Shown here: positions 34,276 to 35,112 of the stretch, in pieces
How positions within the stretch are numbered: position 1 is the stretch's first letter
How the letters are laid out: each line of letters starts with the position of its first letter
DNA from: a virus
Strand: one strand, 5' to 3'
DNA: 64,000 nucleotides
IMG/VR virus record: IMGVR_UViG_3300028840_006907
Location: 405,618 to 469,617 of that record
Position numbers and translations under genes: made by a program
The notes under the pieces: model-generated
Databases searched by the model: none
Told to the model about the DNA's origin: nothing
What the model saw: the letters and a program-made list of their open reading frames with translations, nothing else

Positions 34276-35112
34276 ATGTCTGAAAAATTTACATATTTCT
34301 GGAGTGGCCCATTTTCACAGTGGCACCCATCTCCTTTTGTTATAGAAGGTATTCAATATAACTGTGCTGAACAGTACATGATGGCTATGAAAGCTTTATT
34401 GTTTAATGATGCTGAAAGATATCAGATGATAATGAGTGCAGTGGATCCTTCTGATCAAAAGCGTTATGGAAGAAAAGTAGAAGGTTTTAATGAGGATGTA
34501 TGGAAAAAATACGCTAAAAAGATTGTTTATGACGGAAGCATGGCTAAGTATACCCAGAATGAGGATCTTAAGAAATTATTATTGGCCACAAAAGGAACAA
34601 CACTAGTTGAAGCTAGTCCTCATGACCGGTTATGGGGTATTGGACTTAGTGAGAATGATCCTTTGGCAAAAAGTAGAGCTACGTGGAAAGGTTTGAACTG
34701 GCTTGGAGAAATACTTACGGAAGTAAGAGATAAATTAGATATGGTTCAACGGAGAAATAATACTATGAACAATGAAAATAGGAGAAATAATACTATGAAC
34801 AATGAAAATAAGAGAAATAATACTATGAACAATGAAAATATTGGAACTATTTATCTGAATATCCAGATGAAAAGTAAATTTGCTGATAAGATATTGGAAC
34901 TTGCTCATAAAGATCTTCCTTCAGAGTATCAAATAGGAGGTATAACAAAACAACATCAAATAGTAAATGCTATGGGAAATATCCTTAGTGATTTAATGAT
35001 TGAGGAAGATATAGTAAAAGCAAATGAATTTGGTGGTATAGAGGATCCTTCATTTGAACAGATATCAATAAATGGATTATATATTGATTTATATAATCCT
35101 TCAAATAAATGA
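34276..35112 (+). CDS. NADAR (YbiA-like) domain protein with C-terminal extension (278 aa)
   Basis: FYFWSGPFSQWHPSPF, IEGIQYNCAEQYMMAMKA, ASPHDRLWGIGL, WKGLNWLGEILTEVR match the NADAR fold signature as I recall it. Confidence 0.8.
   Translation: MSEKFTYFWSGPFSQWHPSPFVIEGIQYNCAEQYMMAMKALLFNDAERYQMIMSAVDPSDQKRYGRKVEGFNEDVWKKYAKKIVYDGSMAKYTQNEDLKKLLLATKGTTLVEASPHDRLWGIGLSENDPLAKSRATWKGLNWLGEILTEVRDKLDMVQRRNNTMNNENRRNNTMNNENKRNNTMNNENIGTIYLNIQMKSKFADKILELAHKDLPSEYQIGGITKQHQIVNAMGNILSDLMIEEDIVKANEFGGIEDPSFEQISINGLYIDLYNPSNK
34751..34840 (+). repeat. perfect tandem repeat, 3 x 30 bp, in frame inside the NADAR gene (encodes RRNNTMNNEN x3)
   Basis: Read directly: ggagaaataatactatgaacaatgaaaata at 34751, 34781 and 34811 (third copy begins with a). 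Confidence 0.9.

Follow-up and report, generated by a model that had tools for sequence, protein, structure and literature searches.

Genomic context of the repeat-bearing gene

The window analysed here, a 64-kb stretch of DNA (64,000 nucleotides) that is part of an element of about 470 kb, has a GC content of 29-37% and carries long co-oriented ORFs in close succession. Searches of GenBank phages with blastn returned no close relative of the genome at the DNA level, only partial matches of 66-70%. One of these ORFs encodes a 278-aa protein made up of a NADAR domain, a repetitive spacer and a small C-terminal domain (Table 1). The identical protein (P0001) is on record in NCBI, JGI, ENA and Logan, on contigs of up to 469,617 bp.

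Table 1. Genes and sequence features in and around the repeat-bearing ORF (positions are those of the 64-kb window)
Feature	Coordinates	Strand	Remarks
Paralogous gene pair, 219 and 189 aa	32779-33438, 33469-34038	+	74% identical
65-aa double CxxC zinc-ribbon protein, directly upstream of the NADAR gene	34057-34254	+	phrog_2834, E 4e-13
278-aa ORF: NADAR domain, repeat spacer, small C-terminal domain	34276-35112	+	ORF list; stop codon TGA at 35110-35112
NADAR domain, YbiA subfamily, residues 11-154	34306-34737	+	Pfam PF08719
Repeat copy 1	34751-34780	+	GGAGAAATAATACTATGAACAATGAAAATA; SD-like GGAG at 34751-34754; in-frame ATG at 34765-34767
Repeat copy 2	34781-34810	+	Identical to copy 1; AGGAG at 34780-34784; in-frame ATG at 34795-34797
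Repeat copy 3	34811-34840	+	First base A rather than G; in-frame ATG at 34825-34827
C-terminal 90-aa module, residues 189-278	34840-35109	+	HMMER relatives P0121 and P0122
813-aa major-vault-protein-like gene, next downstream of the NADAR gene	35187-37628	+	MVP shoulder, Vault_3 and Band_7/SPFH domains

The two paralogous genes form a tandem gene duplication a short way upstream of the NADAR gene and its zinc-ribbon neighbour; both products have hydrophobic signal-like N-termini, and one of them matches phrog_24725, a family of no known function. On the other side lies the gene for a major-vault-protein-like (MVP-like) protein, which is followed by a DUF5662 gene. The sole homologues of the MVP-like protein in GenBank phages (42-45% identity, 96% coverage) are found in the uncultured huge phages LR756500 (462 kb) and LR756501/LR756503 (735 kb), this vault-like protein being conserved among huge phages, and no NADAR gene sits beside the MVP-like gene in LR756500 or LR756501. 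Farther downstream, an imperfect 34-bp repeat (39735-39804, + strand; 2.1 copies, 78% matches, 10% indels) is contained within the ORF at 39635-40012. Around positions 44000-46000 the orientation of the genes changes from + to -, the cumulative GC skew peaks and the GC content dips to 29%, a switch that could mark a module boundary or be related to replication.

A 30-bp tandem repeat read in frame

On inspection of the sequence, positions 34751-34840 consist of three 30-bp units arranged head to tail. Tandem Repeats Finder, run on the whole window, gives the array a score of 173 (period 30, 3.0 copies, 98% matches, no indels), which makes it by far the strongest tandem repeat of the window, the runner-up scoring 78. 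A 29-nt core of the unit, GAGAAATAATACTATGAACAATGAAAATA, occurs exactly three times in the window, also when 3 mismatches are allowed, and 0 times in 100 shuffled sequences; no further copies of the unit, full or half, exist elsewhere in the 64 kb. The original prediction had placed three such copies at these positions, and both the repeat and its coordinates are borne out by the Tandem Repeats Finder call and by the count of the core against shuffles. The repeat had been described as perfect, which it is not quite: identity is 89/90, with copy 3 opening with A (34811) and copies 1 and 2 with G.

The codon register of the array is 34750-34839, shifted by one base, and in this register the 90 bp contain two variable sites (c/a/a and g/g/a), both in the first codon of the unit, which reads CGG, AGG and AAG in succession. 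The encoded peptides, at residues 159-188, are RRNNTMNNEN, RRNNTMNNEN and KRNNTMNNEN. The claim that RRNNTMNNEN is encoded three times thus stands for copies 1 and 2 and fails for copy 3, where the A-for-G difference replaces arginine with lysine and also weakens the Shine-Dalgarno-like (SD-like) motif. Asparagine makes up 15 of the 30 residues (50%), against 6.1% in the proteins of the window as a whole, and the Asn codon used in the array is AAT, the one preferred in the genome.

Frame 0 of the 278-aa ORF, in which the array had been predicted to lie and does lie, is the sole open frame over the array and the next 90 codons (no stop codon, as compared with 12 in each of the remaining frames), an outcome seen in only 2 of 20,000 shuffles. 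It follows that the part downstream of the array is coding in the same frame. As no stop codon intervenes, ribosomes starting at 34276 would make a single polypeptide of 278 aa. With at least two head-to-tail copies at high identity, and a unit that is a multiple of 3 lying inside an ORF, the array is a coding tandem repeat, or minisatellite.

A YbiA-type NADAR domain upstream of the array

The match of the N-terminal module to PF08719 (E 1.5e-51) scores 175.3 bits against a gathering cutoff of 35.1 and covers profile positions 11-162 of 163. The match to TIGR02464 reaches 159 bits (cutoff 73.7). Its fold is predicted by AlphaFold2 (AF2) with a pLDDT of 93-98, and it matches PDB entries 8bau (E 1e-16) and 2b3w, the structure of YbiA (E 1.5e-7). 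The module therefore belongs to the NADAR superfamily and, within it, to the YbiA subfamily. [quoted passage not shown] Here the equivalent residue is E112 (TTLVEAS), which is invariant in an alignment of 36 sequences and falls in the predicted strand 109-112 of the AF2 model, so that by this criterion the protein is of the YbiA type. Judged by similarity in sequence and fold, this N-terminal NADAR domain is of the YbiA type and has a putative N-glycosidase/ADP-ribosyl-glycohydrolase activity; it may provide the phage with a counter-defence or repair function.

A role against DarT1 is not established for this domain. The phage anti-DarT NADARs (such as AdfN/gp30.3) are sister groups, and the residue that is His in gp30.3 and Asp in the DarT1-linked family is Glu here, which sets the protein apart from NADARs of the DarG1/AdfN anti-DarT1 type, recognised by that Asp or His and by linkage to DarT1 or proven rescue from it; its score against the NCBIfam model for antiphage NADARs, NF053876, is 42 bits where the cutoff is 240. 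The first 154 residues resemble E. coli YbiA and TIGR02464, far above the family thresholds and with the Glu retained (TLVE112AS), whereas the 30-aa repeat and the 90-aa orphan module that follow are additions with respect to the YbiA subfamily.

The literature (PMC11543638, PMC11125620) portrays bacterial and phage NADARs as stand-alone domains for the most part. The closest relatives of the domain studied here are at most 71% identical to it. The 35 aligned relatives are mostly 156-170 aa long and end 3-10 residues past the conserved LGExLTxVRD motif; in the window's protein the corresponding tail is VRDKLDMVQ and the array comes directly next, that is, the array begins where most free-standing NADAR relatives end. 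The genes neighbouring the best NADAR relatives (L001, L002 and L037) are unrelated to those of the window and do not include the C-terminal module. Two 301-aa NADAR proteins, P0015 and P0008, were considered as possible homologues of the tail, since a BLAST alignment ran through a unit-like KKNTMVN, and were rejected: their tails compare with that of the window's protein only off-register in BLAST (E 0.24) and with a probability of 0.1% in hhalign. After the protein itself, the top-scoring NADAR relatives are two Branchiostoma proteins, P0002 and P0003, which have two tandem NADAR domains (53% identity) and owe their high bit scores partly to this doubling.

The downstream module belongs to a family of small orphan proteins

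Residues 189-278 have no match in Pfam, PHROG, NCBIfam or PADLOC. A HMMER search of 1.84 billion representative proteins recovered only two relatives, the 90-aa P0121 (E 3.7e-13) and the 81-aa P0122 (E 1.1e-12), to which a profile search added a third, P0125 (87 aa), with E-values of 8e-30 to 5e-40 among the members. A word-index search with the C-terminal part missed even the protein itself, which reflects a limit of the index. The similarity to this very rare orphan family is significant and extends over the full length of the module, which is thus a member of it: identity is 40-41% over all 90 residues, with 20 invariant columns that include K..LEL, D.P, FGG and P.F. No further member with longer genomic context was found in viral, metagenome or genome contigs or among GenBank phages. 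The AF2 model of the module has a mean pLDDT of 57, too low to be informative, and Foldseek found nothing better than E = 3 for it in the PDB.

P0121, P0122 and P0125, all metagenomic, are the products of free-standing small genes (81-90 aa) with start codons of their own, unlike the module of the window, which is fused downstream of the NADAR domain by way of the repeat. The N-terminus of P0121, MKTITLKVKVTEAF (MKTITLKV), aligns with I189-GTIYLNIQMKSKF (I189-GTIYLNI), and the initial Met of the homologues falls at I189 or directly past it (alignment A4), so that the orphan family sets in with the residue that follows the array. None of the neighbourhoods of the three free-standing genes contains a NADAR gene beside them, which suggests that the joint is specific to this phage. 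The metagenomic contigs that carry P0122 and P0125 (L040 and L041) share a conserved three-gene neighbourhood, in which the small gene is preceded by a conserved small transmembrane protein and followed by a conserved 127-aa protein (M[DN]NRALEHAKYW...).

The array had been placed between the NADAR domain and a C-terminal region, and this arrangement is confirmed on both sides, with the Pfam domain (residues 11-154) before it and a homologue of free-standing 81-90-aa proteins after it. Since NADAR relatives end at the start of the array and the orphan family starts at its end, the array appears to be the joint of a gene fusion. On the strength of these sequence comparisons, the ORF at 34276-35112 is best described as a fusion, specific to this lineage, of modules that occur elsewhere as separate proteins, with the array filling the exact joint.

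Origin and role of the array

In kind, the array belongs to the well-known coding minisatellites and low-complexity linkers (reviewed in PMC3899988). It shares with coding variable-number tandem repeat (VNTR) or minisatellite linkers the head-to-tail arrangement of near-identical DNA units of a length divisible by three, a polar low-complexity product stretched between folded domains, and a presumed origin by slippage or unequal recombination. It differs in having only three copies, in that polymorphism, the defining property of a VNTR, is not shown for it, in lying on a gene-fusion joint and in having units that resemble a ribosome binding site (RBS) plus start codon.

The reading we favour, with a probability of roughly 60%, is that of a young in-frame minisatellite, produced by slippage during replication or by unequal recombination where the two modules meet and encoding an Asn-rich spacer of 30 residues. 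Either of these processes would triplicate a 30-bp unit at the joint, and ribosomes coming from 34276 would then read through the array, producing a spacer that separates the NADAR and orphan modules. Recent expansion, already argued in the original prediction, is a fair inference from the 89/90 identity, there being only two variable sites in 90 bp. Relatives with 1, 2 or 4 copies were not found, and the direction and recency of the expansion accordingly stand without an outgroup check. We infer both the origin by slippage and the recency of the expansion, and the segment probably acts as a spacer only.

The AF2 model contains a single helix from residue 142 to residue 211 (34699-34908), the last NADAR helix running on through the array, in a region where the underlying alignment is thin. 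Averaged by blocks of ten residues, pLDDT falls from 98 (151-160) to 95 (161-170), 87 (171-180) and 57 (181-190). Such a helix would suit a rigid spacer better than a flexible one, although, with the alignment thin here, either is equally possible, and we give the matter little weight. A confident helix over the first two units is unexpected for a sequence that is 50% Asn, and may be an artefact of modelling.

Alternative readings of the array

What a pure linker reading leaves unexplained is the resemblance of each unit to an RBS followed by a start codon. The unit could be the triplicated initiation region (Shine-Dalgarno GGAG, 10-nt spacer, ATG and first codons) of a small gene that was once separate, preserved as a fossil of the fusion or still working; in the latter case internal initiation at 34765 and/or 34795 would yield a free 115- or 105-aa protein beside the 278-aa fusion. 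GGAG, 10 nt and an in-frame ATG do recur from unit to unit, and GGAG/AGGA Shine-Dalgarno motifs are what the genes of the window use, but at a spacing of 4-9 nt for the GGAG-bearing starts, just short of the 10 nt seen here. The computed energy of the duplex with the anti-Shine-Dalgarno sequence is -6.6 kcal/mol for copy 1 and -7.3 kcal/mol for copy 2, which puts them in the top 4.7% and top 1.8%, respectively, of 276 internal in-frame ATGs and makes them stronger than the median annotated start (-5.4 kcal/mol). The three copies are, however, duplicates of one another and amount to one observation (nominal p about 0.02-0.05), and copy 3, the nearest to the orphan domain, is without GGAG and reaches only -2.9 kcal/mol. 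In the +1 frame a TGA overlaps the ATG of every unit (ATGA), as in a classic junction of coupled genes, and the +2 frame has a TAA; yet AGGAG-type words and stops in alternate frames are common in DNA of 32% GC. That the homologous free-standing proteins start directly past the array, together with the SD-ATG make-up of the units, is suggestive of descent of the unit from the RBS and start of a once-separate gene, though it goes no further than suggestion. In L040, DNA in the start region of the P0122 gene (ATACTATGAA) seems to resemble the unit, but the close relative L041 does not keep this likeness, which is probably due to chance. On balance we consider descent from an initiation region rather unlikely. 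The stronger version, in which the triplicated RBS-plus-start cassette is still active, producing both the fusion and a free 105-115-aa protein in a ratio that would shift, along with spacer length, as units are gained or lost, strikes us as quite improbable.

The units might also act as DNA or RNA, as origin iterons, operator sites or structured RNA, their coding frame being incidental. A period of 30 bp corresponds to about three helical turns, and the lambda origin provides a precedent for iterons inside the linker region of a gene, in that case gene O. Origins of the iteron type comprise repeated binding sites placed at a skew or replication switch, as a rule with an AT-rich region and an initiator gene beside them. 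The gene concerned here is a NADAR gene, not a replication initiator; the unit is confined to its three copies; and the cumulative GC skew climbs steadily across 34-36 kb with no inflection at 34.8 kb, its turn coming only at about 45 kb, where the genes change orientation. The array is thus not an origin of the iteron type. It is accompanied by no excess of promoter-like sites and by no terminator, its RNA folds no better than shuffled versions (z = -1.1), and it has no match in Rfam. A function at the DNA or RNA level seems to us extremely unlikely.

Long, near-identical repeat units make tandem arrays unstable. A contingency-type VNTR, whose copy number differs between isolates and in which selection tunes the distance between the modules or their relative activity, might be expected from units of such length and near-identity, divisible by three as they are, all properties that destabilise arrays (PMC3899988), and if the AF2 helix is right each additional unit would add some 15 Å (10 residues at a rise of 1.5 Å). 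Against this, three copies make a small array, among about 15 billion proteins the one at hand stands alone in its 90%-identity cluster, all 5 contigs with the gene encode the identical protein, and two assemblies are identical to the base over the array. No sister genome for comparison was found in viral, metagenome, genome or GenBank phage collections, and the exact 30-bp unit has no match in viral, metagenome or genome contig collections. Variation in copy number between isolates, as put forward in the original prediction, is hence neither supported nor refuted, tuning of the linker length by copy number is speculation, and we regard a contingency locus as improbable.

Tandem repeats are classic sites of mis-assembly, and in a de Bruijn graph with k = 31 the 30-mer shared by copies 1 and 2 would form a repeated node and a loop. 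The array, at 90 bp, is nevertheless shorter than a standard 150-nt read, and positions 34701-34900 contain no repeated k-mer of 31 or longer because the first base of the unit, or the base before it, tags each copy. Moreover, an independently assembled Logan contig from SRR14699966 (62.6 kb) matches the window base for base across a 6,837-bp stretch containing the array, and the reading frame is kept through the repeat into a domain with real homologues. Mis-assembly of the array is unlikely, the chance that the repeat or its copy number is an artefact being in our estimate very slight.

Significance of the fusion joint

Taken on its own, the array is a routine coding minisatellite and an ordinary feature, and current understanding would remain unchanged unless the ideas of internal starts or of variable copy number were confirmed. 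Were the units still to initiate translation, this huge phage would possess, at a recent fusion joint, a simple device tunable by slippage that makes two products from one gene. The interest of the array as a coding minisatellite lies rather in what it appears to mark to the residue, namely the recent fusion, in a phage of about 470 kb, of a NADAR enzyme with an orphan protein that is otherwise free-standing. The NADAR family is now tied to the reversal of DNA ADP-ribosylation in the conflict between phages and their hosts, and guilt by fusion would provide a handle on the function of the orphan partner. The locus would also offer a clean natural example of a former gene boundary converted into a linker.
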